Shown: positions 35,373 through 57,735, numbered from the whole stretch's first letter. The stretch is 58,104 nt of DNA, filler included, from Basidiobolus ranarum (GCA_040143965.1; 3 parts of 3 records of this genome joined end to end with filler, not necessarily neighbours in it), one strand, 5' to 3'. Notes: a model not told the origin generated them from the sequence alone. Translations and numbers: made by a program.

Positions 35373-36844
35373 ATGAATTCCGAAAATAACGAGGTAAATC
35401 TCTAAAAAGACCTTCCCCCTTTGGCTTCAACAAATACTTTTTATCTAGAAAAAGAGAATCCTTTCTTTTCTCGTTTCTCTCTCTTTTAACACTAATATCT
35501 TTTTTCTAGTATACACCTGAGAACGGTGAAGAACAACAAGACGAATATGTTGATATTAACGAAGTGGGTCAAGTAGTGGATGTAAATGAAGAACAACCTA
35601 TTGACGATGATGGTAAATATCCGATTTATTTTGAAATTTAAAGTATTTTTCCAACGCTAACCCCTCCCTTTGTTGATTCACTTACAAAGAAGAAGATATG
35701 GCCGTTGACGGAGAAGAAGGAGGTAGTATGCAAGACTTGGAAGATTTTGTCGACGATTCGGTTCAAGGATTTTTCACTCATAAAGGTAAATTTCGGGATA
35801 TTATATTACCAATGTACTCTCCTAGCTATTAACGGGACTTTTCTTCTTCCATTCATTATAGAACCGGTATATAGTGTTGCTTTTCACCCAACTGAACACC
35901 ATGTGGTCATGACTGGTGGTGGTGACGATAAAGCCTATGTATGGCGTATTGATACCGGAGATGAAGTATACTCATTCACTGGACATACCGATTCTATTAC
36001 CTCTACTGGATTCAGTGCCGATGGAAAATATGCAGCTACCGGTGGTATGGATGGTAGAGTTAAAATTTGGAACATCGGAGATGGTAGCTTGTTAAATACC
36101 TTTGAAGGACCTGATGAAGTGGTTTGGATGGATTGGCATCCAGCTGGACCCGTCATCTTGGCCGGTGCTTCAGATGGTACCGTCTGGATGTGGCAAGTGA
36201 TCACTGGGGTTTGTATGAACGTCTTTGTGGGTCATACTGGACCAGTGACTTGTGGTAGATTCACTCATGATGGTAAGAAAATCGTCACCGCTTCAGAAGA
36301 TTGCTCCTTGATCGTATGGGATCCTAAAACCGCCAGTGCCCTGGTCAAAATCACCAGTGAAGATGCTCGTTTCCACCAAGAAAGTATCAACTGTCTCGCT
36401 ATCAACAAAGATGATACGTTGATTGTTACCGGATCAGCAGATAATACCGCACGTTTGATTAATTTACAGAATGGAAATATCTTGGGTGCTTTAGAGAATC
36501 ATAGTGAATCCGTAGAAGCAGTAGGTTTCTGTGATAGTTTACCAGTATTTGCCACCGGATCAGTCGATGGTAAAATTAATGTCTGGGATGTCACTACCAT
36601 GAGATTACGTAGTTCTTGCCAACATGAAGATGCAGTGATTCAATTGAAATGGCATAAGGATAGTCCTTTGTTCACTTCTTGCTCCGCTGATCGTACAGTA
36701 CGTGTATGGGATGCTCGTACGGGAAATTGTGAACACAAATTCCAAGGTCATCAAGACTCGGTGCTTGCCTTTGATCTATCGTATAATGGTCATGTTACTG
36801 TCACTGGATCAGATGATGGAGTGTCATTGGTGTTTAACTGGTAA
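35373..36844 (+). CDS. SQT1: WD40 ribosome-assembly chaperone Sqt1/AAMP, 4 exons
   Basis: Acidic N-terminus, then DDSVQGFFTHK|EPVYSVAFHP, TGGGDDKAYVW, WHPAGPVILAGASDGTVWMW and further WD40 repeats. Confidence 0.85.
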
Positions 36845-37310: not shown

Positions 37311-37954
37311 CCTAGTTACTCGGTTACCCGGGGAGGAGTTCAAATATATATACAAGTATATATCACGCACTGTCAACCTTCTTTGCTCATCATTTTCGAA
37401 ACTAAACAACTTCTGCCAATGTAGTTCCATCGCCAAGGTAATGCACACCCATTTACTAATATTAATAAGCACAACTTCATTTATCTTATTTGTATTGATT
37501 TTGGAATTTTAGTAGATCATTCGATAGTTACTCAATCTGACATAATCCAGTCAAATCATTGTCACAAATTTGTTCCATTCGATAATAGGAATATCCTTTA
37601 GCACACATAACTCTGTGATTTACTGGTCTATAGAAATTAACACACGAGTTTTCAACATTGTCAAAATTTTCATTTACATTTAGACCTTTGTGTGAATTGG
37701 TTTAGCTAAGTGTTCCTTTAAACAATAACTTAAGCATCAATATTGTCACTAGAGTTACAAATATAGCTACCACCAAGAGAAGTTGCCAATCTATCTCTGG
37801 AGAATATCTTGGATCCGAGTTATTGTGCAAGAATACTATCAATAGTCACTATGAAATATGTTGCATGCAAGCTACTCACAATCATGAGTATATTGGTATA
37901 TGGAGTAATTCACCATAGTGTAAGGATTTTGAGCCCATCAACTCTATCTGTTAA

Positions 37955-38294
37955 AGTATTTGGGAGCCTGTTGGAAGTGGTTTGGAGAAATAGAGAAATT
38001 GGTGGTTTTCATTTACTGATTTATTGAGTTGTATGTTAACATTTATAGTTTTGTCAAGATGTACACTAACTACCATGTAGAATGTGTTAAGAAATGTACC
38101 AGGGACATCTGTACAAAGTTTTGGGCCTCTAGCACAGGTTTGAAAAATCTATATATCTGAGAACTTCCAGGTTGGTGTCAATATTCTAAGTAAATTCCTC
38201 TTGAGAATAATGGGTATATCTTAATGCAATATAAGATAAATAAATACTAAGCTATATATGACTATACAGCTGTTTAGGCCATGCTAATTTCAAC
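37955..38294. repeat. Dispersed repeat family, copy 2 (arm + hairpin + core)
   Basis: TAGAATGTGTTAAG...AAAGTTTTGGGCCTCT...GAATAATGGGTATATC followed by TATATGACTATA...GCTAATTTCAAC; matches the other three copies. Confidence 0.8.
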
Positions 38295-38738
38295 AAATAG
38301 AAGAAGAAGGCCAATTAGATACATTTATCACTGGGTATTTTAAGTCAATTATTATTGATCAACAACATCATTTTATTAATGATTTTCATTATCCCAATGG
38401 TGATATCTTTGAAATCCATGATGAATAGATGTCATGATTCTGATCTTGGCATACTCATCCACTGCAAATGGAGTCCTTCTATTTTTAGACTATGACATCA
38501 TATTTGCTGTGCCATCCCTTCTTGGCAAACTTGTGCTAGTTCATCCAGGTTATCTTATGTGGAAGTCTTGTTCTTTAGAATATTCCATGAAACCTAATCA
38601 ATCATATCATCCCACAAATAGTATATTTCTGCCAAGACCTTCCATGGAAGGTCACCTGATCAACCTTATATCATCCCCCTTTGTATTGATCCTTGTAGTC
38701 CCCAACACTCCAACACTTGAACTTGCCACAGTATATTC

Positions 38739-38838
38739 NNNNNNNNNNNNNNNNNNNNNNNNNNNNNNNNNNNNNNNNNNNNTTAATTAATTAANNNNNN
38801 NNNNNNNNNNNNNNNNNNNNNNNNNNNNNNNNNNNNNN
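38739..38838. other. Artificial contig-joining spacer (N44-TTAATTAATTAA-N44)
   Basis: Identical in design to 19340-19439. Confidence 0.95.
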
Positions 38839-38854
38839 AGATTTAATCAGACTA

Positions 38855-39048
38855 ACGTGTAGAATGTGTTAAGGGAGGTCCCAGGAACATGTGTGCAAAG
38901 TTTGGGGCTTCTTTGAAGAATCTATATATCGGAGAACTAAGCAAATTCCGATATCGAATAATGGGTGATATCTTAGTATTTAGTTATCCTATATTTCACT
39001 GGGCTATATATATGACTATATAGGTGTTTAGGCAATGCTAATTTCAAC
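38855..39048. repeat. Dispersed repeat family, copy 3 (arm + hairpin with inverted loop + core)
   Basis: TAGAATGTGTTAAGGGAGG...GAATAATGGGTGATATC then TATATGACTATATAGGTGTTTAGGCAATGCTAATTTCAAC, at the contig start. Confidence 0.8.
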
Positions 39049-40149
39049 AATATTCACAGTTGGTACAAATCCTACTAAATATCGCCATTTAGTACTACTA
39101 ATTAAAACTTTATATCTACGTCCGTATTCTACACATATTCCAGTCAGACCACAAGTCAGCGTAATATAAGTCTAAACTAAGCCTAATCTCCGCTATCCTC
39201 TGAGGCTCATTGCCAATGCCATAACATATAATGATGCCAATCCTGCTCCTTCTTCGTCAATTAGAAAGAAAAACCCTAAGCCACCAGGTTTTACCTGGCC
39301 CTTTACCGCCATTAGTAACAGTTCACTTATGAAGTGATGGACTACATGAAGGCCAACTTTCTTTGTATAACTTGCTTCATTGATTCCTTTTTTATCTCTG
39401 TACTATAGGGAGCTAGATGGTATTAGTATATCTTTTCATTCCTTAAAAATCAAACACTTTATATCACCTTTGATATACTCTATATGTGATGCTCAATAAA
39501 GAAAGTAAGAACCTTACCCTAAGCTAGGATATGTAGCAGCTAGTATTGCTAACTTGTGCCAGAAAATTAATCACATCTGCGATAATTCCATGTTAGCTGA
39601 TTTTAGCTTCACAGATGATTGAAATGCTGTCATGAATAAGCATCTCTATAATCATCACTCTTCAATTTCTTTGTATTGTTCCATTCAGCCAAGGTTTTAC
39701 AGTAGGGGTGTACCATGAACACCTCCTATATGAATGTAAGCCTTAGGTACTGGGTGTCAGAATTATTGATTTGAAAGAACTGATAAGTACAATGTCCATA
39801 GATTGTGTACTTACCATGTATAGAGCAGAAGCTTCTCTTTTTTATATTTAATATGTCTGATCTGGATTGGTGCTCGATTAATCTTTATTGCACTAATTCT
39901 CCAAATATTGACAATGACGTTAGTGGCCTATTGTTTTTCATGATAATCACTGCTTTTGGTGCTAAATGGTATTATCTCTGCCAAGTTTTCAAACGAGACT
40001 TGTCTAACAACTAGCCAGTTATTTGGCCCCTAGCAATGATGCTGATGGCAAGATCATAGTTCAGTATTGAAGTTAAGAAACATACTTTATTACTATTAGA
40101 AGAAGAATTTACTCAACTCTTGACGTCGTAGCGTTTAAATAAAAGCCAT

Positions 40150-42962
40150 TTATTCCTTTTCTTTATCCTGTAAAGAAATAAACACTTCTTCTAATGTAGT
40201 GGTAGACAGCCCAAACCCAACCACTCCATAATTTCCAAGCGCACAAATGGTCTCTACTTCCTCGAAGAAATCCGGGTATTTCTCTTGATCCTCATACTTA
40301 TTTGGCAATAAGTAAGTAATAATATGAGGAGAGTTGTCTAGCACTTTGGCTGTTGCTAAATGGGATTGAATAAAGGCAGTGAGGCCTTTTTCGTCAAACT
40401 CATTCTCATTTTGGACAGCGATCAACTGACCTGTCCTCTCGCCATTGGAGGTGGCCTTTTTCGTCAAGCTTAAATGATAACCAACGCCAAAGCGATTCTT
40501 CAAGAAAAGGGAGCTTCCCAGGGTCTGAAGTTTCCCTTTGGACATAATCGCTATTCTATCACCCAATGCATCCGCTTCCTCCATACTGTGAGTAGTTAAG
40601 ATAACCACTCGGCCCTCCTTGCTATCTTGAATGAGTTGCCAGATTTGATTTCTAGAATATACATCCATGCCGGTAGTTGGCTCATCGAGCAGAATGATAG
40701 AGGGGTTCCCTAAAAGAGCGATTGCTAGACTTAGCTTACGCTTCATACCCCCACTATAAGATCCCGATTTTTCGAAGCACTTGTCTGACAAAGAGACATC
40801 CAACATCATTTCAGCTATATACTCTTTTTGTAGCTCCTCCTGTTTACCGGGAATCACGGACCCATTAGAATCGCTTTTACCCAATATATGTAGCCCTCGT
40901 ATGGCTGCGAATAACTCCATATGCTCGACAGCTGAAAAGGTATCGATAAGTATATCGAATTGTGGACAAACTCCCAACATCTTTTGAACTTGGGACTTCA
41001 CGTGGATGTTAGAGCTTCGGTTACGACGTGTGGGCAAGGTTTGACCGAATATTGAGATTGTTCCGTCATCAGGCAGGGTTAAACCCGATAGCATGGAAAT
41101 GGTGGTGGTTTTACCAGCACCGTTGTGACCTAAGAATGCCAATACTTGGCCTCGGTTTAGGTCTAGATCAAGATTATTAACTGCATTGACTTTACGGGAA
41201 CCTTTGCAGAATCCCTTATTTTTCACTTTGAATGTCTTTTTCAAATCGGTTATAAGAATAGCTCCACGGTCAGGTGGAGTAATAAAGCTAACATCTTGTA
41301 ATTCGAACATATGTTTGTCGTCATCGTTGATCTTACTAGCTGCTATTAGCTCAGTGTCCTTTATGGGCGCCGTATTCCTGCTCAGATCAGTGAGCTTGGT
41401 AGATTTCCAGTAACTTTTACAAAACAAAAAGTTCCAGGGCAAAGCGATTCCTTCTTCCCCGGGCTTCAGATGATCTACGTACCATGCGATTAGTAAGTAC
41501 AGCAGAGAATCAACAAACACCATTAGGAAAGTGAAATTCAGCGACAAGTCGTTTGGTTGATTATTCATCTCTGCGATTGTGTCGAAACTGTTCGCCAAAG
41601 AGATGACCCGGCCAAAAGCAATGGGTGAGATCAAGCATAGACAAGAACTTCCGGTGAGGGCAACTGACCCTCTCCATAGCAGTTCATACAATATGGATAG
41701 TGTTATGGAAACAAGAGTCAATAGCAGTCCGGCAAAGGGAGCAGTCTTGGTACTGGTGAAATAGATGGAAAACATGGTGCACAGGGCGATCATTCCCACG
41801 CCATAAAAGATCATTGAACCTAGTATGTAGCCAACAGCGATGGATTTTATGGTTCGGGTGGCGTAGATCAGTATCACTGTGATGATTATGGGGACCAGAG
41901 TAAATGCCAGCAGGTAGAGCCAGATAGTTGCCAAATATATGGTATGACTAAGCCCCATCATTAGCATACTTCCCTTAATCTTGATCTTTTTGTCTATGTT
42001 CAATACCGTCATGTAATAGATGAGCAGTGGTTGAAAAGCAAAGTTTAAGAAAATCAAACTCATAAAGGGCAATACATATTTAATGAATGTATTGTCTCCC
42101 AACTTGGTGTAGGATAGAAAATTCCGTCCGCTACCGGTGGCGATCCTTTTCCCAAATGTGGCCTCCTTTGCTGGTAAGGGTGAAGAAAGTAGGGCTTGTC
42201 CGGATGCCTGACGACGGGCATTAGCAAGCGCTCGCTCTATGTATGCTTGAATAGTAAGCGAGCGAGTTGCAACGTAATCCCTATTGTCTGTTAAGGTGTG
42301 ATTTGTATGGATTTCGTATGCAGCAGACTAAAGATTCGCTCATTAGTAGATGTATCTCTTGAAAATCCTCACTGAATTGTCTTACTTGCGCTCTGTCATT
42401 GGTGGTGAAAGTTACACCAACTACTAAGCTTGATGGATCTTGCGAAAAGTGACTTGCCAACTCATTGTAATCGGCGAACCGTCTCAACGAAACCTCTTTG
42501 GGCTCCGAATAAACGAAGAGTTTTTGAAGATTTGCAAGTATTTCATCGATGGGGCTGTTTGCTATGTAACCCATGTGAACACAGCTGGGCTGGCTTGCGG
42601 AACAAGTGCCTTCCGTGAGAGGTGTTAAAGGCTTTATGTCAATGGCTTCAATTAAGATGAAGATTAGTATCCAAGAAGTGTAGACTAATATACGTGGAGC
42701 AGTTACCAGTCGGGATAGATACGGTTTTAATGATGATCAGGATGACAACCATGTAGATAGGCTAGAAGGTAACTTTATCAATAAGAAGCTGATCAGGGAA
42801 TTCCGACAAATTACTTACAGAGAGTAGCCCATTATACAATGAAACCCTGTCTCGAATTCCGTGAAGGAATTGCTTCTTGAGCAGAGCCTTGAATTGCCTC
42901 CACCTTGAACGTTTGCAGGTGGAGTTGTACCTAGCGTTTGAACTCTTCTTCTCAGTGTTCAT
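40150..42962 (-). CDS. ABCA-subfamily half transporter (TMD-NBD), N-half type
   Basis: N-terminal WRQFKALLKKQFL plus TM; GHNGAGKTTT, LGVCPQFDIL, YSGGMKRKLS, LLDEPTTGMD, LTTHSMEEADALGDRIAIM, GSSLFLKNRFGVGYHL, TTLEEVF. Confidence 0.88.
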
Positions 42963-43767
42963 ATGTCGACTGACTGGTTAAGATCCAGGAGTTGAGATTG
43001 TAAGAAATGATTTGAGCCCAAATAAAGATCCGGATTCTATTTAAGTACGTCCAAAGTTAAAAATAATTCCACGAAAGCGTCGTTCAACCGATCTTCATTC
43101 CAGAGCTCAATCAAATCAGTATTGTGGCACGAGCAGTTGCAGCCTGAAACCTGAAAAGGGAGCTTGAAGTACTTTGTTCAGCTATTGGATTTCTTGGCAG
43201 CGTATGATATCAGTATGATTTCCCTCGATGTGAAAGAGTGGTGATAATTGCTTCAAGGCAGGTTTTTCATCCCTAGACAGCATCAAAATTGGTGCCAAGA
43301 AACCAGCTAGAGCAACGCATTGAGTAACTCACTCTTTAGTTAGATTACTGCTTCCCTAAATAGGCCGGTTTCACCAAATCCATATGGTTGACTTTGCACA
43401 TGTCTAAGTTAAGGAAGGTTAACCTTGTCTCACAAAGTATCCTTAGAATTCATCCACTGGCTATCAAGCATTTTCCCACCGTTATTGTCTCATTTGTGCA
43501 TTGCTTAGTGTCCATTCCGTTTCTTTGGTCCCTTTACAATAGCAAGTTCAGCTATTGCAAATTGATTCAATTTGTATCCTTAGATGGGAAATTAAGAAAT
43601 CTTGGCACTTTGTCCAACACACATCGGAGCGCCGAATCGATATACTACAAAGCACACCTCTGGACTCTACAAGCCAATCAGACTGGATCAATTTCTTTAT
43701 AAGAGCTGCTGCGTACGAAGGACGTTTTTATTAGAATTTAAACTAGCTACTCCCGTAAGCAGTAGCA

Positions 43768-46569
43768 ATGAAGATGTCCTCCCCCAAGCATCGGCCAGTC
43801 TCATTTGGCACTCAGCTAAGACTGAATCTGAGCCTGAATCTTAGACTTGTGTCGCGGAAGATCCTGAGCGAGGTAGTAGGTACTATCTATCTTCGTAAAA
43901 TCTGTACGTCGATATTAGTTTAACTCTGAAGTTGCGTTGAATAGCCATCGTGATCCCCACCGTATGCGTGATTATTGCCGTTATCATAGTAAGTCTCACA
44001 TTCCCTTCCCAGAGGTCAATATCTAACCCATTTAAAGCCGGGTTTAATTTCAGGTGGCCATGACACTCCTGTTGGCACCATTTCGCAGTGAGTGATTGAG
44101 ATTTAGAGTTCACTAGTGACATTTTTCTAACTTTCATTACTAAGATGGTCAATCACCTCTCCATTTATTGCTAATTCTTGGTACTCCTCACCGAATCCAG
44201 GGATTGTAATAGATCAACCCGTTTCTAAGGATGTCTGGTCTCAACGCTTACTACCTAGTTATATTGCAGTTCAAAAACTTCAAAATACTACATTAACCTT
44301 CAATGAGTATGATTCTATCGATGCCCTTATCAAGCAGCGTGACATTCTCGACACACGTACACGAGATGAGAAGATATCACAGCCGGAGACTGTCTCGGAA
44401 TTGGGTTTCGAATTAAACTCAGTAGAAAATGGAAATAGCCAACTCGATTTTGGTTACACTTTATTTTATCAGAGCTACCAAGAGAGCGCGCTCAGTTGGC
44501 TTGTGGCGAATATGGAGGCAGCGGCCCAAAGTGCATATAGTAAAGAACCAGCCAGCGTTTTTATGAGCAATGTCACCTTCAGAACTCTACCGTCCACCGC
44601 TTTGGAAAATGTTGGCTCTGCAGCAGATATTATTCCTATATTTGTTGCTTACGGTACCATCCCAAGTTACTCTTCATCAATTTGAGTGGGTTTTAACAAG
44701 TTATTTTCAAATCTAGCGGTGTCATTTATTTTACTCTTCTACGTCACGAATATGGTACGTGAGCGTGAACATGGACAAAAGCAACTTTTAATCCTTGCGG
44801 GCCTAGATTCACGAGCATACTACCTAGCAGCATTCATCAGAGATATGGTGATTTATCTTATTCCAATTGCAGTATTCTTGATCATGTTACAAGCAGAAAG
44901 AACCCCACTGTTTGTGGAGTCGAGTCCTGCAGGATATGTTTTACTTCTATTATTGTGTGGACCACCATTCATATTATCTGGATATTTGCTTTCATTTATG
45001 TTTGAAAAGAGTAAATCGGTTGGTCTGGTGATAGGCTTTCTATTACTCATCATTGTATTTGCTCCATTCGCGATCATTCGTTTCGCATTTGAAGATCACG
45101 CTAGTATAACCACAGTCAGTATTCTAAGTTTCTTCCTACCTACTTTCGCCCTTCAACGTGGTCTCACAGTAAGTGAATCTCTTCTCCCAACATCATTATT
45201 TCACACCATTTACCATGTCTACTCTAGGAATTGGCAACGGCCTGGTCGAAAGGCTACCCGTATTCGACCTCCATGGTCTTCAGTTTCAAATTTCCGATTC
45301 TACCGATGTTGTTGGCCTTAATTGCCAGCACAATATTTTACGGACTTCTGGTGATATGTTTGGAGCATGCAATAAACGCTCGTATGACCCCGTTGAGCTT
45401 GATTAAAAAATTATTCCGTTCAAAAGATCCGGTGGATCACATGTTAGTCCAAGAGACTAAAGTTGACTTTACCAAACGGTATTCAGACGAAGAAGTAGCG
45501 AATGAGAAGATTAGAATCCTAGAGAACCGAGATGAAGATGATACCATGCATATTCAAGCACTATCTAAGGAATTCCCATTGCAATATTCGAATCGGCGTA
45601 GAGCGATCATTAATGATTTGTGGCTCACTTTGAGACGTAATGAATGTTTAGGCTATCTGGGTCCTAATGGTGCCGGTAAAACTACCACCATTAAGATGTT
45701 AATCGGCGCTTTGAGTCCGACTTCTGGAAATGCTACCATTGAGGGGTACTCCATCGTTCCTTATTCTCCTCAATTAAAGCAACTCGTCGGTGTCTGTCAG
45801 CAATTTGATGTTTTATTCCCGGAACTGACCGGTAGGGAACATCTACGCTTATTTGCCAGATTACGCGGTACCATCAATGTTGAAGAAGCAGTTAAAACAA
45901 CCATTGAAGAAATGTGCATACAAGAGGTAGCCGATCAAAAATGTAAAGGTTATAGTGGAGGTAACAAAAGAAGGCTAAGCATCGGTATGGCGGCCATTGG
46001 ACATCCCAAAATTTTGTTTCTCGATGAACCTACCACTGGAGTGGATGTCCATGTTAGACAATCTATCTGGAAAGCCATTCGAGAACTAAAGAAAAACACT
46101 AGTATTGTTTTGACCGTAAGTTGAATTTCTCTTTCAGTCATGATTTTCACTTACTAATCACCTCGTAAATTTCAACTAGACTCATAGTATGGAAGAAGCC
46201 GATGCACTCTGTGACCGAATTGGGATCACCGTTAATAGTCAACTAGCTGCTCTTGGTACTCCCCAAAGATTAAAGAATGTCTACGGCAAAGGATACAAAG
46301 TCAATGTTCGCACTGGAACTACCAATACAGTGGAATCCGTGATTCAAGGGATATTCCAAGAATTCGGAAGTGTTCGTGAACAAGTTAGATTGGTACGTAG
46401 ATTAGGATGCAATTTAGAGTTTGAGATTGAAGGTAGTTCTCTTGGCAAGATCTTCAAATTTCTTCACAAAATCCGAGTTTCTTTAGATATTGTCGACCAT
46501 GCCGTAGCACAAACTACTTTAGCTCAAGTATTTGTGGAATTTGCCAAACAACAAGGGATTGAGAACTAA
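43768..46569 (+). CDS. ABCA-subfamily half transporter (TMD-NBD), C-half type
   Basis: Spliced start MKMSSPKHRPVSFGTQLRLNL...VVAIVIPTVCVIIAVII; MVREREHGQKQLL; GPNGAGKTTT, YSGGNKRRLS, FLDEPTTGVD, GTPQRLKNVYGKGY, QTTLAQVFVEFAKQQ. Confidence 0.88.
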
Positions 46570-47029
46570 ACTTTTAACTATTTTGCCACTCCTATTTTCA
46601 TTCAAGTATTTAACATTGGATTCATTTTTATTATGCCAAATATGCCTTAATTCTGTATACGGCATCTAGTTTTATTCTATCACTCTACTTAATATAATCT
46701 AGAATGTACAGCCTTAACTCTTATTAACGTTAAGACTAGTCAAAGCTTTCGGAATTTCAGTAGTAGATTGTTACTTCCTGTATTCAACGAAAACATTGGA
46801 GGTAGTTGAGTTCACTAGAAAATACTGTTAAAAGTAAATCATGAACCTATCTTACCCTTTTATTGTGTAATATGCGAGTAACCAACTTCACATCAAACCA
46901 ATGATGGATGATGCAAATGCTCTGTGGAGCAGTAGTATTGAAAGTCCTTTGTGGATAACCATCTCATTGTCCCCTAAGAGCTAGATGTTACGTATATCTG
47001 GGATGACCTGGTCCAATGTGTAGTTGGTC

Positions 47030-47750
47030 TCTATTTTTATCCCTCAGCTCAGTCTAGCGGTGAGTGGCTATGCATCAATTACAATAGTTACATGTAAAAG
47101 CTGCGATGTGAGTAATCTGAAAGCTTGAAATCAATTGGGCTGATTTCATTTGATACATATTCTAACGATATTGTTGTGAGAATGACTCCAGACAGATATT
47201 ATCTTACTCTTGAAGCAGATGGGGAACATACTCAAATATATATTGATGCGTTTGATAATGGGAGGTATCTAGGATCTGGAAGTATAGGTAGGTGTACACC
47301 ATCGAAGCAGAATGGATGGCTGGATATTTCTTAGGGTTTGGCGTACATATCAAGAAGATCTTAGAGATAACGATTTAGAATTGAGCAGAACATATATGGA
47401 TATAGGTTCAGGCTTAATTATTCCTAAATTTATTTTATCGATGAAGACTACAAATTTAGTCAATGCTTATCGTACTTTAAGTAGATTATAAATATATATA
47501 CAGACGGCTAGATCTCAACTCCTAGAAAGTATGCCAGTACTATTTATACATCGAATTCTTCCATATACGGATGGCTATCTATATTTAGCAAATAACCAAA
47601 AGATATTGAGTGGAAGAATGCAAGTATTTAGGTGTTTGATTTGGAAACAATCATGATTAGAAAAAGAGAGGATCATTGCTAGTTATAAGATGCCGATTGA
47701 GAAAGATCCTATTGTCCATGGAACTGGATTACCTTGTTTGACATTTCATA
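47030..47750 (+). pseudogene. Possible degenerate FBXO21/SirB1 (transglutaminase-like)-type gene relic
   Basis: Short frame IVVRMTPD...TQIYIDAFDNGRYL resembles the YIDxFxxGxxL motif; surrounding frames are interrupted by stops; boundaries are approximate. Confidence 0.3.
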
Positions 47751-50700
47751 ATAATATCACTAAACCAAAGATCCTGGACTTGGTCAATGGTGCTATATGA
47801 AAGCCATGACAAAAAATAGATAGTGTAAATTACGTACAAATAAGTGATAAGATAAAGCCAGAGTTCATGGTTAGAGCACTAGATGCGTTTAGGCCTATTT
47901 CTGTCCATAGATGGAAACACACCGACATTAAAGGCTTGATTCTGTCAAAATAATGGATAGAATCTCTTTCACTAGCAGAAAGGTACACATAAATATACTT
48001 CTTTAGTACTGAGAGAAGTATGAGTACCTTTCTTGATATTTGATGATAAATTTGGATTATTTCAACTTTGCTCTTTATTCCCTCGAAAGATAGGTTTCCA
48101 ATGTGACAAGCTTGGCATACGAAATACTTGTCAATTTTTTCAAAGTTTTTCAACAATGATACATACTTTATTCTAGCCTTCAAAATAATCTAGCCCCTGT
48201 ATTCCAGATACATTGGTCATAAACTTTGTATAATTTACAAGATATAGTGTGCGCATGAGTAGTATGCTATATGAGTATATATGTTCATACCATATTTGAT
48301 CAATATATCGTCTCTTCATTAATGGTGAAATGGAATTTCGTTTAATCTCATGTGCAATCATTACTTCTCACTATGCTGAAGAGGTATTGAAAGAAATAAG
48401 CAATTTTTTTACGTAGCGTATAGAATTCAGTATAAATCATTGACCTAGTCCAATTTGAAGTTTCTAAATCAGAGAAGGAATATTTTAACTAAATCTTACT
48501 TCATTATAAGATCTAGATCAATTGTCAAACATATGAATGATGAGAAATCTATAGAACACTCACTTACATCATTCTTGAATTCTTCAGTGAATATTGTAGC
48601 TGAGCCTTAAAAAACACTGATATTATATCAGATATTTATCATAGCACCAGCTTGATTACTCTTAGATTTAGCAATATACCAATTTCCTTCATCTAGCTTA
48701 TAGCAACAATACAAGTGCAAGTAACAGATTTGTTATATAGAATTTGAAGAAGGGAATAGAACACCCTGCTTGCAAGTGAGAAACTGTTTAAAGATAATCC
48801 AATGGGATCAGATGGTTTGTAAGTAGCGATATATAGGCGTTGGAAATGGAACCTAATGTTGCCAAATTTGGAAATGGAAACTGAATCTACAGTTCGGAAT
48901 ATTCTAATCTAAAAAGATTCCCAAGTATCCAATCCATCTACCGCATTTATTCGAAATTTGGAAAGCTCTTAATGCATGACAATGAAGCAGTAAGACTTGA
49001 TTGATGTAACAAACCTAAGGTGGTTTAGGTCGCACGAGGTAGAGAGCTCTGATAATAACAAACATTTTCTTTGCCATCCATAGACTCAATTCTGTTCTGA
49101 TCAAATCTACCAGTATTAGGATGCTTAAACGCTAACGAGATGGATGCTTTCCAAAGAACACGACAATGGCCATTCGACTATCTTACCTGGTTGTACAAGA
49201 TCCTCTAAATTGGAAACCAAATCCACAGAAAACTTGTCAATAACGTATTAGATAAACACTAACAATCATGCAACTTGAACAGTTTGAGATGATGTCATAA
49301 AGATTTTAGACACGCATTATCTAGATATCGGTTTAGAAAACTAACTCTCAGCAGAAATCAATACTATCGAAGCTCTCCATCGACTGCTTCATTTATCATG
49401 CTGAATACCATGATTTTCGTAAATATCTAAACTGACAATAAGTTGGCCTTTAACCAATAGTTATTTAGGCCTCAGCCCTACTCTTCAACCATTCTCTGTC
49501 GCTGAATCATCACCAACAACAAGTAATCATGAGCAATGCATTAATCATCCAAGCAATGCCTGTCAGAGCCACAAAGCCAGTAGCTGTACCAGCGCACTCA
49601 TTAGCCTTTTAGTTTGGGAGTATGTCCTGTTGATTTGTGTAAATTGCAAGCTACTCGGGTACCCGTCCTTTCACTATGCTCGTTTCGTCTAATGAGAATG
49701 AGAGCAAAGCATTCCAGAATTATGATTACCCTGCATCGGGGAAACTCAGTATATGACTGCCGTTTGAGGACCTAAATATAGACAATTCCTTTTCGTGATG
49801 GTTCCCTTATCCTAAGGATAGTATTCATTATCTAAGCAATCTGTTGAAAGTACACACCAACAGTCAGGGAACAAAACTATACCTCGATTAACGTTGATAG
49901 TGGGTATGATTGGTTAACTATTTATATTACTAATCTCGCTAGCGAATCCATTGACTGGTATTGATCCAATTAACTTTCAGCAACTACGGACATAATCCAA
50001 CGTTTAATATATCCAATTAGTTTTGCTCGTGCCTCTAATTTACCCTGAGTACCAGGCCGGAAGACGCGAAATCTTTCCATGAGGTTTCTCCGTTTCCAGT
50101 GTAGTGCAAATCCCGCCTTAACCCTTACTCCTAAAACCAACCTCTCAAGGGATGGTTTCAAGCTCTCACACACTATTTCGCAATCCTCGCTTATGATTGT
50201 CAGCGTAGGGAAAGTGCCAAATATGGGACTCTATGAGTCACTCAACGCTGTCCATACAACACTCAGTATTAACTTCGAACACCACTAGCTCCTCTAGTGT
50301 GCAAATTAAATTTGAGGTATCAGTCAAGCCAAGCAATCCGCGAGTAAAGCTTAGCAGAATGATAAGCTTACTAATACCTACTAACCAGTGCTTATTTATT
50401 TCATGAAACTAAGAACCCGGTTTCTCCGAGTATTTTCAAAATCCGTTGATCCAGGTATTTGGGAATCCATGGATCGTGTACAGCTATCGCACCTAGTAAG
50501 CGATGATTTCAATCTGCTTTTCCCGGTGATCATACCGGATCAAGTTGATAGACTCAAGGTGTGACCGAAACCTCTTTCACCCCAATGGGTGCTGATCGGG
50601 GGATATAACTGATTAGTCCAACCCGAATGAGTTGGATTAGAGATGGAGGGGAGGGGAGGGCAGAGATTGCGGAAACGAACACTGGAGGAGCGCCTATCAA

Positions 50701-51088
50701 GGAAGCGGAATAGGATTCCAATTGCTCTGCATATATCATGGTGATTCTTATCAAAAGCATATCAACAATATAGGATGAGTAATCGATTTTATATACCATA
50801 TACTAATTAGAGTTAGTCGACCATAATACTACCAAAAGCGTTGCCAATTAAATCATAATTCGGTCAAATAGATTCAGCATCGCGGGTGTTCGGAGAAATT
50901 CTAGAAAATCTATCAATCCATTCATGATAGCAAAAAAATGAGGTGATGAAAATTCCATACTTATATAAGGCCTCGTCCTTTGCTTAATGAACGATCACCA
51001 AGCTCGCACAACTCATCTGAGCTCTATATATCTGACTTCAATTCAGACGGTTCATTTCTATATTTCTTCAACCACTAGCGCTTCAAAA

Positions 51089-52249
51089 ATGCCTTCTGCT
51101 AAACTTGCATCTCCTTACATAAGGAGTCAAATGAATCTTCCTAATAAGGGAATCCATATTCCCTATCACTCTCAAGAGTCCCTACACATTCACAGTGAAA
51201 GCGATTCCAACTATTCCACCGTATCATCTGCCTCTTCTTTCGACTCTACCGGTTGTTCTCTTTATAAAGTTCCTAGTAGATTCGTGCTATCTTCATTCAA
51301 GCACAAGAAATCTACATCCCACCGTAAGAGTCCTTTCAATTTTCTTACCAAACACAAAAATCCAAAAAATAGAAAGGAGTTGTTTTTGCCTTTACTTGAA
51401 GCATTGAAAAAACGTAACGCACCTTCTCTGTATGAACTTTATGGTGCTACAACCGATCACGTTTCGACTGGAGCTGGAGGAAGTGTACATGTAACATATT
51501 CCCAACGCGACAACAGGAAATATGCAGTAAAGAGCTTCCGTAAAAGACGCCCTGAAGAGAATGAGCAGCATTACTACGAGTGGATTTCGAACGAAGTGTA
51601 CATTGCTATCTCTTTATCTCACCCAAATATCGTTCAAACAGTGGATGTCGTGTTGGAAAATAACCAAGTACACCAAGTGATGGAATATTGCCCTAAGGAT
51701 TTGTTCACACTAGTCAAAGAAGTTCGCCTCTCACAATCGCAGATCGATAATTACTTCCTGCAGTTAATGCGTGGACTAGCCTATCTCCACCAACGTGGTG
51801 TTGCACATCGTGATTTGAAACTAGAGAATCTCTGTATCGATGAAGAGGGCAATCTCAAGATTATCGATTTTGGATGTGCGTTTATTCTTCTAGATCCATA
51901 TGCCGTCGATAACAAAGCCTTGGCCTCTTCAATAGCAGGTTCGGATCCATACATTGCCCCTGAGGTGTTCACAGGAGCTTCATATGATGCCGCGAAAGCT
52001 GATGTATGGTCAGCAGCAGTTGTTTATCTTTGCATGATTCTTCGTAAATTCCCCTGGGATATCGCTCGTCCCAGTGAGAAGGGCTATGCTCAGTTCTTGC
52101 AACACCGTCATGAAGACAAATTTTTCCGCAAGATTCCATCTGATGCTCTTCCCATCATCAGAAAGATGTTGGACCCCAACCCCGACACAAGAGCAACGGT
52201 CGAGCAAGTATTCCTCGATCCTTGGTTCCAAAGCCTCCTTGATCAATAA
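51089..52249 (+). CDS. Ser/Thr protein kinase, fungal HAL/NPR (Sat4/Hrk1/Npr1-like) family, intronless
   Basis: GAGGSV, YAVKSFR, HPNIVQTVD, HRDLKLEN, IIDFG, GSDPYIAPE; likely start at MPSAK given TATATAA at ~50962 (alternative ATG at 50987). Confidence 0.88.
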   Translation: MPSAKLASPYIRSQMNLPNKGIHIPYHSQESLHIHSESDSNYSTVSSASSFDSTGCSLYKVPSRFVLSSFKHKKSTSHRKSPFNFLTKHKNPKNRKELFLPLLEALKKRNAPSLYELYGATTDHVSTGAGGSVHVTYSQRDNRKYAVKSFRKRRPEENEQHYYEWISNEVYIAISLSHPNIVQTVDVVLENNQVHQVMEYCPKDLFTLVKEVRLSQSQIDNYFLQLMRGLAYLHQRGVAHRDLKLENLCIDEEGNLKIIDFGCAFILLDPYAVDNKALASSIAGSDPYIAPEVFTGASYDAAKADVWSAAVVYLCMILRKFPWDIARPSEKGYAQFLQHRHEDKFFRKIPSDALPIIRKMLDPNPDTRATVEQVFLDPWFQSLLDQ

Positions 52250-54400: not shown

Positions 54401-56688
54401 CTATTTCATTGGTTAAAGCCAAGATTTTGGATGATAAAATCATGTTGAAATTTGCCTTGTCAGTCTTCAAACCTTTGGACTATTATAGGAATTTTTATTA
54501 GTCCAGATTAGATTCATACTTGACCTGATGTTAAGGTTAGTGGAAATAATGCTACAGATGTATAATCTAAATCCAAAAAAATCACCAACTTATAGTTATT
54601 TTACTCTTAAGAGTATATGGTGACTTATATAGTAGAAAAGTAAATCAATTGTTTAAGATATTCAGGAGTTGTGTAATAAGATATAATAGGTAAGTGGGGG
54701 TAATAAGACATACTTGTTATATAGATATAGAGATATTCCTACTTAGAATATAGGGGCTATAGATACATTGCTTTCTGTTTCTGATATATGTATCATAACT
54801 AAAGTTAACTAAGATGTTGAATAAAGATTAATTATCCAACAGAAATGAATCTTCTGTAGTATAGATAAAAACTGGTATATCATTTATTTTGCATTCATGT
54901 AGGTAGACATTTTTCATGTAGTAGTACTAATTGTAACATTCCTCATGAGGTAAAATATGGTTCACATTTGATGTAATCGTAAGTAAACAACAGATAGCTA
55001 AACACTGGTTAATAATTAATCTACAGTAGCTTCGGGTTGACTAGTTAAGTACTCTTCTACTGGATATCTGAAAGCCCCTTGTACTGTTATCTGGCAAAAA
55101 ATGGCTCGCGAATAAGAAAGATAGGCAGTCTTGATGTGAAGTTTAAAGTACAATAATTATTCAGACTCTGTGACGATTATTTTAAACAGTCCATATAAAA
55201 TCTCAATCTCTCATCATGATGTAAAATAGAAGATTTAGTGGAAAGATAAAATTCTACTTGAAAATTTACCATCATTATTTTAATATACAGAAGAATCATC
55301 GCGGAGTACAAAGAAGGCTTAGTATGGTGAAAATACTGGTAAGTTATGCAAGCATTATCTCGAGTCAATATTAAAGTCCCTAATCCTAATCTACAATAAT
55401 GCGATGAATTCTACCACAGCATAATCCATTTATCCCATTCTCGTAATCTAAACCATTCCCAAAATAGTCCCCAATATAATAAGGATTTCGAGTCTTTATG
55501 ACATCATCAGGAAGAGAACGGATACATACGTAAATTTGAGGTGACGAGGAAGTAATGGCAAATTTGAGAAGTAACAGGATACGTTACCCATGTAAGAAAT
55601 TCCTTATGAAGACGGGAGCACATGCTAGTAGCCACTAAATCCTGTAGACAATTGTTTGAATAAGGTAGGGCTGAAGTTACAATAAAGTGAAGGTGAGGCA
55701 GTTGACTGAAAAATGGGTTGAATTTCTAATAGAAATGGTCTGAAATTAGAAAGGTGGCGGTGTTCGTACGTTGGTTGATGAGTTAGGATGTTCTTTAGCG
55801 TATTCTCACGTGCAAAATCATCATCGCTTCGAATTTCCAGATTTGTTGAGTTGTGCTTTACTTGGCATGATATTTCGGCGGGGAAGAGAGGAAAAAAAGT
55901 GGGTCAAACAATGAACTCATCAGAATGGATTTTATCTAGGGCACTGGATGTCAATCCCAACCTTTATGTAGCTTACCAACCGGCTTTAGCTAGTAATCAG
56001 GGTTTTGTCGGCACTTATGGTGCAACAAAGTATAGGTAGAATTGGTCATACCTAGTGTGTAGTAGTAGGGAGATTCATAAGAGACCAACCAGATATCGGG
56101 AAAACCAGCTTTTTCATATCCAGCGGCTACGAGCAAATAAGTGAAAAAGCTGTACGAGCAAATAGGATTGCTCCCATATCACTCAGAATCAGCAATTCAA
56201 ATGAACTTGAGCGAGTTACTTGGATTCAGGTTATGAGTTATCACAAGAACTTCTTGAAGGTAACTTCGCTTCCAGTTTCACTACGAACTCATTTGAAAAT
56301 AGCAAATAGCCCTAATTTAAGTAGCCCTTGATTCCATCTGTGGCTTGGCTTGATTCCGATACGACATCATTGGCAAAGCTACTTTATGCTTTGGGCCAAT
56401 TGAAGTGCCGAGGGATGCGACGTCATTGGCAGAATATGATTTTCATATGAGGTTTTAGCTCAGTGGATTCTACCACCTAGATGAAAACGTCATCCAAGAT
56501 ACGAATCTCCATGATAACAAATATGCCATTGATCAAATAATGTATCACGGATTTCGGGAAGAGGCTCCCCAAGAAATCGGGTATAGCTATTCAATGTGCA
56601 AAGCTTGGATTGACCTCATTATCCAAGAACTATAAAAGCCCCTCAAGTAACGATGAATTCCACTAAAAAAGCAAGACTCTCATTTATC

Positions 56689-57735
56689 ATGTCCCTAAAG
56701 AACACCCAAGTCATTTTCAAGAAAGTCCCCGAGGGAATGCCTGTGGTGGGTGAACATATGGAATTAGTAACCAAAGATTTCGATCCAAACTCTGTAACTC
56801 TCAATGATAATGACGTACTACTTCGAAATCTGTATATGTCCGTTGATCCCTATATGCGCGGTAAAATGCGCGCTCCCGAAGCCAAGTCATATACCCCAGC
56901 TTTTCCATTGGGAGAAGTGTTCCAAGCTGCTGGAGTAAGCGAGGTAATCAAGTCCAAGAACTCAAACTACAAGGAAGGTGATATCGTCTCGGGTTTGATC
57001 GGTTGGGAGAACTACTCGTTAATTCCTGGAGGAAAAGACCTCCGCAAGATTGAAGGAGCCCGGGAGTCTTCCATTCCTTTGTCTTACCATCTTGGAGTCT
57101 TGGGAATGCCCGGTATGACTGCCTATGCTGGTCTTTTAAAGATTGGTGAGCCAAAGAAAGGTGAAACCATTTTCATATCAGCTGCATCTGGCGCTGTTGG
57201 TCAAGTAGTAGGACAAATTGCCAAAGTTAAAGGACTTCGAGTGGTGGGAACTGCCGGTGATGACTCTAAGGTGGAATACTTGAAGAAAGAATTGAAATTC
57301 GACGCCGCTTTCAACTACAAGAAGGTTGACTTAGATCAAGCATTATCAGAGCACTGTCCTGATGGCATTGATGTTTACTTTGAGAATGTTGGTGGCAAGA
57401 TGCTGGATGTGGTATTGAAGCATTGCAATGATTTCTCTCGTATCCCAGTATGTGGCATGATCTCACAATACAATCGCACCTCCAATCCTGAACCCATATA
57501 TAATATTTCGATGGTTCTTACTAAGCGTATCCGATTCCAAGGGTTTATTGTCTCCGAAATTGCTGGAGAGTATAAAGATCAGTTCTCCAAGGAAGTTCCC
57601 AGCTGGTTGAAGGAAGGAAAGATGATATACAAAGAAGATAAAATGGAAGGTATCGAGAATGCCCCGGAAGCATTCCTTCGTCTTCTCAAGGGAGAAAACT
57701 TTGGCAAGCAAGTAGTAAAGCTTGCAGACATTTAA
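56689..57735 (+). CDS. NADP-dependent alkenal/double-bond reductase (MDR family, PTGR/LTB4DH-like), intronless
   Basis: YMSVDPYMRG, LGVLGMPGMTAYAGL, SAASGAVGQVVGQIAK, GIDVYFENVGG, CGMISQYN, GENFGKQVV; TATAAAAG at 56631 (alternative ATG at 56653). Confidence 0.92.
   Translation: MSLKNTQVIFKKVPEGMPVVGEHMELVTKDFDPNSVTLNDNDVLLRNLYMSVDPYMRGKMRAPEAKSYTPAFPLGEVFQAAGVSEVIKSKNSNYKEGDIVSGLIGWENYSLIPGGKDLRKIEGARESSIPLSYHLGVLGMPGMTAYAGLLKIGEPKKGETIFISAASGAVGQVVGQIAKVKGLRVVGTAGDDSKVEYLKKELKFDAAFNYKKVDLDQALSEHCPDGIDVYFENVGGKMLDVVLKHCNDFSRIPVCGMISQYNRTSNPEPIYNISMVLTKRIRFQGFIVSEIAGEYKDQFSKEVPSWLKEGKMIYKEDKMEGIENAPEAFLRLLKGENFGKQVVKLADI

Follow-up and report, generated by a model that had tools for sequence, protein, structure and literature searches.

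ABCA1, ABCA3, ABCA4 and ABCA7 are human disease genes whose products are very large single chains with non-equivalent halves. Among ABC half-transporters, ABCG5 and ABCG8 are encoded by head-to-head genes and form an obligate heterodimer, and their heterodimerization has been proven. Half-size members of the ABCA family are also described: in the text of their 2010 survey, Kovalchuk and Driessen define a half-size ABC-A 'Group II' that among fungi is found in chytrids only, S. punctatus and B. dendrobatidis among them (PMC2848647). Two of the proteins that the text lists, BDEG_05951 and BDEG_05952 of B. dendrobatidis, may be encoded by neighboring genes, since their tags are consecutive, which is a hint only. 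The original prediction for the locus analyzed here placed it against half-size ABCAs of plants and protists; it omitted the chytrid fungi, for which such proteins had already been reported in the text of that survey.

Results

A non-coding spacer separates two intact, divergent half-size ABCA genes

Mapping of public protein models onto the window (the whole stretch of Basidiobolus ranarum DNA that was analyzed, 58,104 nucleotides with filler included) places two intact half-size ABCA genes in divergent orientation with an 805-bp spacer between them (Table 1). K7432_006044 encodes a protein of 878 aa on the minus strand (working label P0241) and K7432_006045 a protein of 814 aa on the plus strand (P0121); we refer to them as the minus and plus genes. 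The window DNA reproduces both models letter for letter, with GT-AG introns and start codons at 42962 and 43768, and thus bears out the prediction that two half-size genes diverge from an interval of about 805 bp. Each gene has its own start and its own stop, on opposite strands, and the locus does not encode a single TMD1-NBD1-TMD2-NBD2 polypeptide. Searches of the spacer for Rfam families, tRNAs and Pfam-matching ORFs returned none, so that no gene or RNA of these kinds is recognized within it.

Table 1. Positions of the two genes, their exons, their nucleotide-binding domains and the intervening spacer, numbered along the window
Feature	Coordinates	Strand	Basis
Minus gene, N-half-type ABCA half-transporter K7432_006044	40150..42962	-	exact model map, Pfam, PDB alignment
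Minus gene exons (4)	42962-42819, 42761-42707, 42645-42386, 42327-40153; stop codon 40152-40150	-	
NBD1-type domain, minus protein residues 507-774	40465..41268	-	phmmer envelope
Spacer, candidate shared (bidirectional) promoter	42963..43767	.	805 bp between ATGs, from mapped models
Plus gene, C-half-type ABCA half-transporter K7432_006045	43768..46569	+	exact model map, Pfam, PDB alignment
Plus gene exons 1-4 of 7	43768-43879, 43945-43988, 44038-44087, 44145-44653	+	
Plus gene exons 5-7 of 7	44717-45168, 45228-46115, 46180-46566; stop codon 46567-46569	+	
NBD2-type domain, plus protein residues 496-728, split by intron 46116-46179	45546..46308	+	phmmer envelope

A head-to-head arrangement could have arisen by recent inverted duplication. 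The plus protein shares 29% identity with the minus locus over 559 aligned residues, and the only inverted DNA match between the genes is 42 nt long, 79% complementary, and lies at the Walker A codons. Because protein identity is this low and a DNA repeat is absent, a recent inverted duplication is ruled out, in agreement with the earlier reading of the genes as very dissimilar.

Domain architecture and catalytic motifs

In both proteins a Pfam ABC2_membrane_3 domain precedes ABC_tran. PF12698 (ABC2_membrane_3) scores 34.0 bits in the minus protein and 78.3 bits in the plus protein against a cut-off of 31.6; for PF00005 (ABC_tran) the respective scores are 97.7 and 98 bits. The order of domains in the minus protein is read as TM1, extracellular loop, TM2-6, NBD1-type domain and a putative R1-type tail. 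A candidate large TM1-TM2 loop is suggested by an N-terminal hydrophobic segment and the roughly 170 residues between it and the main membrane block; ABCA5-like N halves align with the minus protein end to end (q 23-876 to t 8-824), and the alignment takes in the region of the short extracellular loop. For a possible R domain after each NBD, PF23321 (R1_ABCA1) gives a weak match in the plus protein (14 bits, E 0.054, cut-off 27) and falls just short of the cut-off in the Mortierella ortholog (26.7 bits). Alignments to PDB structures reach residue 873 of 878 in the minus protein and 811 of 814 in the plus protein, spanning the R1 and R2 regions of ABCA1/4.

All of the motifs quoted in the original prediction occur in the two translations: GHNGAGKTTT, SGGMKRKLS, GSSLFLKNRFGVGYHL and TTLEEVF in the minus protein, and YSGGNKRRLS, GTPQRLKNVYGKGY and QTTLAQVFVEFAKQQ in the plus protein. 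The NBD1-type domain has a Walker A (GHNGAGKTT), signature (SGGMKRK), Walker B (LLDEPT) and H-loop His, and the NBD2-type domain has the corresponding elements GPNGAGKTT, SGGNKRRLS, FLDEPT and His. The columns for Walker A, the Q-loop, the signature, the Walker B Asp-Glu and the H-loop show no variation among the aligned fungal halves, whether N-type (8 of 8) or C-type (13 of 13). Judged by these motifs, both ATP sites look catalytically competent.

The two genes correspond to opposite halves of full-length ABCAs

The minus and plus proteins are closest to ABCA and not to other ABC subfamilies. For each, the top 13 distinct PDB sequences are ABCA1/3/4/7 (E 1e-104 to 1e-125, with best values of 1e-115 and 1e-125 for the two proteins), and the next matches are ABCB1 or bacterial ATPases (E 1e-35 to 1e-42). 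The best-matching stretch is the first half for the minus protein in 13 of 13 of these solved human sequences (for example ABCA4 668-1277, ABCA3 280-859 and ABCA1 617-1253) and the second half for the plus protein, again in 13 of 13 (for example ABCA1 1636-2225, ABCA4 1677-2252 and ABCA3 1117-1717); both sets run through the R domain.

Comparison with a wider set of full-length proteins gave the same assignment. By bit score, the minus NBD matched NBD1 better than NBD2 in 94 of 96 two-NBD proteins. The plus NBD preferred NBD2 in 71 of 96 and NBD1 in the remaining 25, and the C-type signal is therefore weaker in the NBD alone. When the TMD and loop part was taken by itself, the first half was matched better by the minus protein in 88 of 97 full-length proteins and the second half by the plus protein in 90 of 97. 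An NBD tree (89 rows, LG+C20) groups 15 plus-like fungal proteins as a clade (SH-aLRT 100) sister to 24 NBD2s, and nine minus-like fungal proteins as a clade (SH-aLRT 99) within the NBD1 side. Whole-half trees recover the N-type/C-type split under both LG+G4 (79 rows) and LG+C20 (38 rows).

A constraint that unites the fungal halves in a single clade was rejected for the NBD (p-AU 0.037) and for the whole half (p-AU 1.7e-6, log-likelihood loss 120), so that an outcome which the original prediction named as refuting it, two NBDs grouping as sister paralogs, is rejected by AU tests. The four comparisons (PDB alignments, NBD bit scores, TMD and loop part, and trees), which are only partly independent, concur with the prediction that the minus gene is of first-NBD type and the plus gene of second-NBD type. 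By sequence classification, we assign the minus gene to the N-half type and the plus gene to the C-half type, complementary to each other and not sister paralogs.

The pair recurs in early-diverging fungi

The two halves share a contig in B. ranarum, which has two such pairs, and in B. meristosporus, Syncephalis plumigaleata and Mortierella sp. AM989. The window pair has adjacent locus tags (006044 and 006045), and the second B. ranarum pair (005598 and 005596) sits on one 20,588-bp contig. Accessions are consecutive in B. meristosporus (ORX89818, ORX89817) and S. plumigaleata (KAI8053070, KAI8053071); in Mortierella sp. AM989 they are five apart on one 21,651-bp contig, and the genes there are linked but perhaps not strictly adjacent. 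The two-gene set thus persists in relatives, with same-contig linkage kept in four species (linkage only, strand layout aside). Dimargaris xerosporica has its halves on separate short contigs, one of 20,095 bp with a model flagged as partial and one of 5,607 bp. For Podila verticillata, the contig with the N-type half measures 5,810 bp and the longest contig of the C-type cluster 140,415 bp.

Further N-type halves come from chytrids, Blastocladiomycota, Endogonales and Kickxellomycotina. Those of the chytrids Entophlyctis and Polychytrium belong to the clade that holds the window minus gene, and among the proteins retrieved, chytrids and Blastocladiomycota yielded N-type halves only. The N tree and the C tree divide the Basidiobolus copies into the same two sub-clades; on this topology the pair was evidently duplicated as a unit in that genus. 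Its distribution marks the pair as an old lineage of fungi that extends from Zoopagomycota to Mucoromycota, with its N-type halves reaching chytrids and Blastocladiomycota. A candidate fused form, Jimgerdemannia P0394 (1438 aa), was ruled out, as it contains one ABCA half only (residues 32-870). A metagenome scan with the C-type alignment returned 80 loci with at most 45% identity over the NBD and no fungal pair; its only search patterns, GPNGAGKT and FLDEPTTG, are generic, as are the NBDs that it matched. An ESM Atlas look-up with the plus protein returned generic ABCA clusters only.

Predicted assembly of the two halves

A complex prediction for the NBD plus R portions of each half scored 0.56 against 0.01 for the best control, a verdict of 'weak support' that covers the minus-plus pairing only and does not separate a heterodimer from homodimers. 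The prediction was made without our own alignments; at least 84% of contacts were common to the runs, and partner pLDDT was at least 82. In the calibration of the method, 51 of 78 solved complexes and 2 of 108 mismatched pairs attain the pass mark. Only 5 of the 78 solved complexes scored 0.60 or less, as did all 4 of the mismatches, out of 180, that passed. Since the like complexes of ABCA1/3/4/7 are solved, the pass may reflect likeness to those structures.

Discussion

We propose that this locus is a naturally split ABCA whose two products probably assemble as a 1:1 heterodimer that most likely moves lipid. The minus gene would supply the equivalent of the N half, comprising TMD1, NBD1 and an R1-like tail, and the plus gene that of the C half, with TMD2, NBD2 and an R2-like tail. 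Pairing of the two polypeptides would restore the TMD1-NBD1-TMD2-NBD2 architecture of single-chain relatives, and the complex most likely carries lipid across a membrane, by analogy with the family. Heterodimer assembly is the best reading, lipid export is suggested by family membership, and the 805-bp spacer is a candidate bidirectional promoter from which the pair could be co-regulated. For the obligate heterodimer put forward in the original prediction, the in-silico pass of 0.56 against 0.01 is weak support that may reflect likeness to solved ABCAs.

That each product instead forms a homodimer, the state presumed for half-size ABCAs of plants and parabasalids, with adjacency a leftover of an old duplication, strikes us as unlikely. 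Such an arrangement would be chemically possible given complete catalytic motifs in both NBDs, it has precedent in plant and protist half-size ABCAs without a known complementary partner (PMC2848647), and the in-silico support for the heterodimer is weak. However, the pair consists of an N-type and a C-type half, the non-equivalent partners of single-chain ABCAs, and not of sister paralogs. Same-contig linkage is common to Basidiobolus, Syncephalis and Mortierella, and linkage and co-duplication in Basidiobolus both count against independent halves, because neither would be expected to survive between genes of unrelated function. It is most improbable that the locus is one full-length gene broken by a false inversion in the assembly or by a wrong gene model. 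We raise this only because draft fungal assemblies are fragmented and found nothing in its favor, and against it stand the exact match of the window to the public models, the ATG, N-terminal pre-TM segment and stop that each gene has of its own, the non-coding spacer, and the annotation of each type as a separate protein of about 810-990 aa in independent assemblies from several genera.

As to how the split arose, we lean toward ancient fission of a fused gene over a pre-fusion relic. The head-to-head layout observed is exactly what one inversion would produce if it carried the 5′ half along with its promoter. The alternative, which is compatible with heterodimer assembly and which we hold to be possible but doubtful, is that the pair is the surviving unfused N-type/C-type heterodimer ancestral to the core full-length ABCAs, a clade that takes in full-length proteins of kinetoplastids, plants, stramenopiles, amoebozoans, animals and chytrids. 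The N tree and the C tree both place the fungal clade as sister to all of it (SH-aLRT 99-100 under LG+G4, 95-97 under LG+C20). The LG+C20 tests rejected placement of the fungal halves with the ABCA5-like/Spizellomyces group, one of the groups named after the trees had been seen, for the C half at p-AU 0.0053 and for the N half at 0.016; both results speak for pre-fusion ancestry. A 'heterofusion' origin of full-length ABCAs was moreover proposed in the text of Xiong et al. (2015; PMC4649718). Yet full-length proteins of the Planoprotostelium/Guillardia type branch outside the fungal and core clades together in both halves, and with this fused outgroup a relic needs two independent fusions where one fission suffices. 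It also requires that the unfused pair was lost everywhere but in Fungi. The ABCA5-like placement was not rejected under LG+G4 with 79 rows (p-AU 0.058 and 0.17), and the fungal stems are long (0.32-0.79), so that attraction to the root is possible. Recent fission from an ABCA5-like gene is accordingly disfavored under LG+C20, the better model, and not rejected under LG+G4. Should the ancestral reading be correct, which we suggest only tentatively, Basidiobolus and its early-diverging kin would hold living representatives of the unfused heterodimer that gave rise, by fusion, to the core full-length ABCAs of eukaryotes, and the head-to-head layout would have kept the halves split by preventing read-through fusion.

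Full-text searches of the literature gave no description of paired N-type and C-type half ABCAs; the supplementary tables of PMC2848647 and PMC4649718 may list such genes. The pair extends half-size ABC-A proteins beyond chytrids, the sole fungi credited with them in the text of the 2010 survey (PMC2848647), and offers a direct test of the 'heterofusion' idea as set out in the text of PMC4649718. It is also a conserved, previously unremarked lipid-transporter candidate in early-diverging fungi, the oleaginous Mortierellaceae included. A natural two-gene ABCA with short extracellular loops would provide a small, separable system for studying how the halves recognize each other and what each ATP site contributes.

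Of the known systems, chytrid Group II is likened to the window pair by description, as half-size ABC-A in early-diverging fungi; unlike our reading, the text of that account is without N-type/C-type complementarity, pairing or heterodimers (PMC2848647). Plant half-size ABCAs of the ATH type (e.g., Spinacia ABCA2, Thlaspi) resemble the window genes in their TMD-NBD half-size form, but group with the N half of the deeper Guillardia/Planoprotostelium-type full-length lineage and not with the window genes, and among the sequence sets compared no complementary C-type partner was found for them. Single-chain ABCAs (human ABCA1, ABCA3, ABCA4 and ABCA7 and animal ABCA5-like proteins) have the same ABC2_membrane_3 and ABC_tran domains and the same order of TMD, NBD and, putatively, R tail in each half, whereas the window halves are separate genes on opposite strands, and both fall outside the core full-length clade. 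ABCG5 and ABCG8 differ in placing the NBD before the TMD, the reverse of the window halves, and are paralogs of each other, not counterparts of the halves of a fused relative, whereas the window heterodimer is a proposed one. Related to the ABCA/ABCG group, they share with the window pair a divergent arrangement of half-transporter genes across a short spacer, and serve as a model for its possible co-regulation and mutual dependence.

Results

Stop-to-stop reading of 39.5-47.2 kb of the window revealed ABC-transporter exons on both strands, one set on each, and the minus and plus products alike carry ABC2_membrane_3 and ABC_tran domains (Pfam). Database look-ups matched these products to two Basidiobolus ranarum proteins, K7432_006044 and K7432_006045 (retrieved proteins P0241 and P0121), whose models agree with the window at every letter, the introns all being GT-AG. 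Spliced mapping confirms in full the original prediction of two half-size ABCA genes diverging from an 805-bp spacer, and all of the motifs quoted for them are found in the two genes. The strong dissimilarity claimed for the halves also holds, as the proteins share ~29% identity and no inverted repeat was found between the two genes' DNA except a 42-nt match at Walker A. No RNA gene, tRNA or protein domain was recognised in the spacer, which spans 42963-43767. An intron within the nucleotide-binding domain (NBD) is absent from the minus gene, unlike the plus gene.

Coordinates of the ABCA pair and neighbouring features in the window
Feature	Position	Strand	Details
Minus gene K7432_006044 (P0241, 878 aa)	ATG 42962 to stop 40150	-	4 exons, spliced mapping
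Plus gene K7432_006045 (P0121, 814 aa)	ATG 43768 to stop 46569	+	7 exons, spliced mapping
Last intron of plus gene	46116-46179	+	splits H-loop region (LT / THSMEEA)
Pair of long open frames, 940 aa and 688 aa	29836-34747	+	each with Sortilin-Vps10 and Sortilin_C
WD40-repeat protein	35642-36844	+	neighbour of ABCA pair
Protein kinase	50969-52249	+	neighbour of ABCA pair
Zinc-type dehydrogenase/oxidoreductase	56614-57735	+	neighbour of ABCA pair

The neighbouring genes in the window do not suggest a lipid cluster. The two Sortilin frames probably belong to a single gene for a Vps10-type sorting receptor with several domains, or else to two genes in tandem. In the flanks of the ABCA pair (37500-40100 and 46600-50900) G+C is 0.33-0.36, against ~0.42 in the genes, and these intervals contain no open frames of at least 130 aa.

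Four partly independent comparisons, involving solved structures, the NBD alone, the membrane and loop part, and trees, concur that the minus protein is of first-half (N) type and the plus protein of second-half (C) type. When sequences of solved structures were searched, the top matches of both proteins were 13 distinct ABCA1/3/4/7 sequences; for the minus protein the best-scoring stretch fell within the chain's first half in 13/13, for the plus protein within its second half in 13/13, and for both proteins the alignments extended through the regions of the R domains, the regulatory domains that follow each NBD. The NBD alone was compared with 96 proteins that measure 1400 aa or more and show two NBD matches apart from each other, a sample biased by its derivation from the two homolog searches. 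NBD1 outscored NBD2 in 94 of the 96 for the minus NBD, and NBD2 outscored NBD1 in 71 for the plus NBD, with the reverse in 25. The membrane and loop part of the minus protein preferred the first half in 88 of 97 full-length proteins, and that of the plus protein the second half in 90 of 97.

In a tree of NBDs (89 rows from 61 hand-picked proteins of 241; 244 columns; LG+C20; quick search), the 15 plus-like fungal proteins group together as the sister clade of 24 NBD2 rows, and the nine minus-like proteins make up a clade within the NBD1 side. The same split was recovered in two trees of whole halves (TMD, NBD and tail), one of 79 rows and 695 columns under LG+G4, from which Paramarasmius was left out, only a 77-aa fragment standing for its second half, and one of 38 rows and 710 columns under LG+C20. 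Forcing all fungal halves together cost 51 log-likelihood units with the NBD data (p-AU 0.037) and 120 with the whole-half data (p-AU 1.7e-6), which rejects the minus and plus halves as sister paralogs, the relationship that the original prediction had set against its own reading. At the level of sequence, the two ABCA halves are complementary.

Five instances, drawn from four species, have the N-type and C-type halves of one species on a shared contig: the window pair, whose locus tags are adjacent; another B. ranarum pair, with 84% and 87% identity to the window's proteins, on a single contig of 20,588 bp; pairs with consecutive accessions in B. meristosporus and Syncephalis plumigaleata; and a pair on one 21,651-bp contig in Mortierella sp. 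AM989, where accessions five apart do not imply strict adjacency. Conservation of the two-gene set in relatives is seen as same-contig linkage, head-to-head orientation having been read in the window DNA alone. Two further species are uninformative or contrary on linkage: in Dimargaris xerosporica one half lies on a 20,095-bp contig, in a model marked as partial, and the other on a contig of 5,607 bp, and in Podila verticillata a contig of 5,810 bp carries the N-type half, the longest contig of the C-type cluster being 140,415 bp. Basidiobolus copies divide into the same pair of sub-clades whether the N tree or the C tree is consulted, as expected if both genes were duplicated together. Several copies of each half type occur in this genus (P0002/P0122, P0124, P0004, P0123; B. 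ranarum and B. meristosporus), with at least three N-type and at least three C-type models in B. ranarum, some of them truncated on short contigs.

Searching 1.84 billion representatives with a profile and then looking up names placed N-type halves in Podila, Mortierella, Dimargaris and Jimgerdemannia (Endogonales), in Blastocladiomycota (Allomyces, Catenaria, Blastocladiella, Paraphysoderma) and in chytrids (Entophlyctis, Polychytrium). C-type halves come from Mortierellaceae, Dimargaris, Tieghemiomyces, Syncephalis and Basidiobolus; among the halves retrieved, chytrids and Blastocladiomycota are represented by the N type alone. In Jimgerdemannia flammicorona (P0394, P0393, P0245), a 1438-aa model comprises one N-type half (residues 32-870) and an unrelated extension; its 90% cluster also contains a protein of 463 aa named 'alpha/beta hydrolase', and the model is probably chimeric or the product of a merger.

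Across the aligned N-type (8/8) and C-type (13/13) halves there is no variation in the columns of Walker A, the Q-loop, the signature, the Walker B Asp-Glu or the H-loop, indicating that both ATP sites of a heterodimer would be canonical. Complex prediction, run as one job on the NBD and R part of each protein, scored 0.56 against 0.01 for the best control (graded 'weak support'), with at least 84% of contacts common to runs and partner pLDDT of at least 82. In calibration, 51 of 78 solved complexes attained a mark of this kind, as did 2 of 108 mismatched pairs; just five of the 78 scored 0.60 or less, and 4 of 180 mismatches passed, all at 0.60 or below. This weak pass does not discriminate heterodimer from homodimers, and it may reflect likeness only, because solved ABCA structures hold the same interface.

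Discussion

Of the original interpretation, complementarity and conservation stand; the heterodimer and the shared promoter we infer. The two halves of single-chain ABCAs are non-equivalent partners. Given the N-type and C-type identities, long-kept linkage and co-duplication, the simplest reading is that the minus and plus proteins would pair 1:1 in a heterodimer that restores ABCA architecture. Both genes are probably co-regulated from the 805-bp spacer as a candidate promoter. That the substrate is a lipid is a guess from the family, as is the transport direction.

In both whole-half trees the fungal clade is sister to an entire 'core' full-length clade (Leishmania, plant ABCA1, stramenopiles, Physarum, animal ABCA1/3/5/7-like proteins, Chromosphaera and a full-length Spizellomyces protein), and a second full-length lineage (Planoprotostelium, Guillardia) lies outside both. 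This mirror-image topology points to a single history common to both genes, and, the outgroup and the sister both being fused, parsimony favours one fission over the two independent fusions required if the pair predates fusion into full-length ABCA. Gene fusions are generally regarded as commoner than fissions, which speaks for such a relic. So does a heterofusion origin of full-length ABCA, proposed by Xiong et al. (PMC4649718). Weighing these points, we regard the relic as rather unlikely and lean modestly, on tree topology, toward fission of a fused gene; one inversion of the 5′ half along with its promoter would yield exactly the head-to-head layout.

The ABCA5-like group, which provides the closest end-to-end matches, is the obvious alternative source, from which fission would have been recent. 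Placement of the fungal halves there is rejected under LG+C20 with 38 rows (p-AU 0.0053 and 0.016) but still allowed under LG+G4 with 79 rows (p-AU 0.058 and 0.17), for groups defined only after the trees had been viewed. All trees are quick searches, and their fungal stems are long. In the set P0128, P0129, P0131 with P0031 and P0055, full-length ABCAs of the Guillardia/Planoprotostelium type constitute a deep lineage of their own; its N half is where the half-size ABCAs of plants group, and its C halves fall outside the main NBD2 clade.

Half-size ABC-A proteins were found among fungi in two chytrids only by Kovalchuk and Driessen (PMC2848647), who inferred them in the fungal ancestor and whose five intact genes include BDEG_05951 and BDEG_05952; the sections of that paper considered here pass over pairing and N-type versus C-type identity without comment. 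Full-text literature searches turned up no account of a split ABCA with paired, complementary halves, the supplementary tables of PMC2848647 and PMC4649718 excepted. The pair should be of solid interest to specialists in ABC transporters and fungal evolution, mainly because it makes the origin of ABCA and its half-to-half logic experimentally approachable. ABCG5 and ABCG8 are a head-to-head pair, and in this arrangement, as generally described, they are the closest functional analogue of the Basidiobolus ABCA genes.
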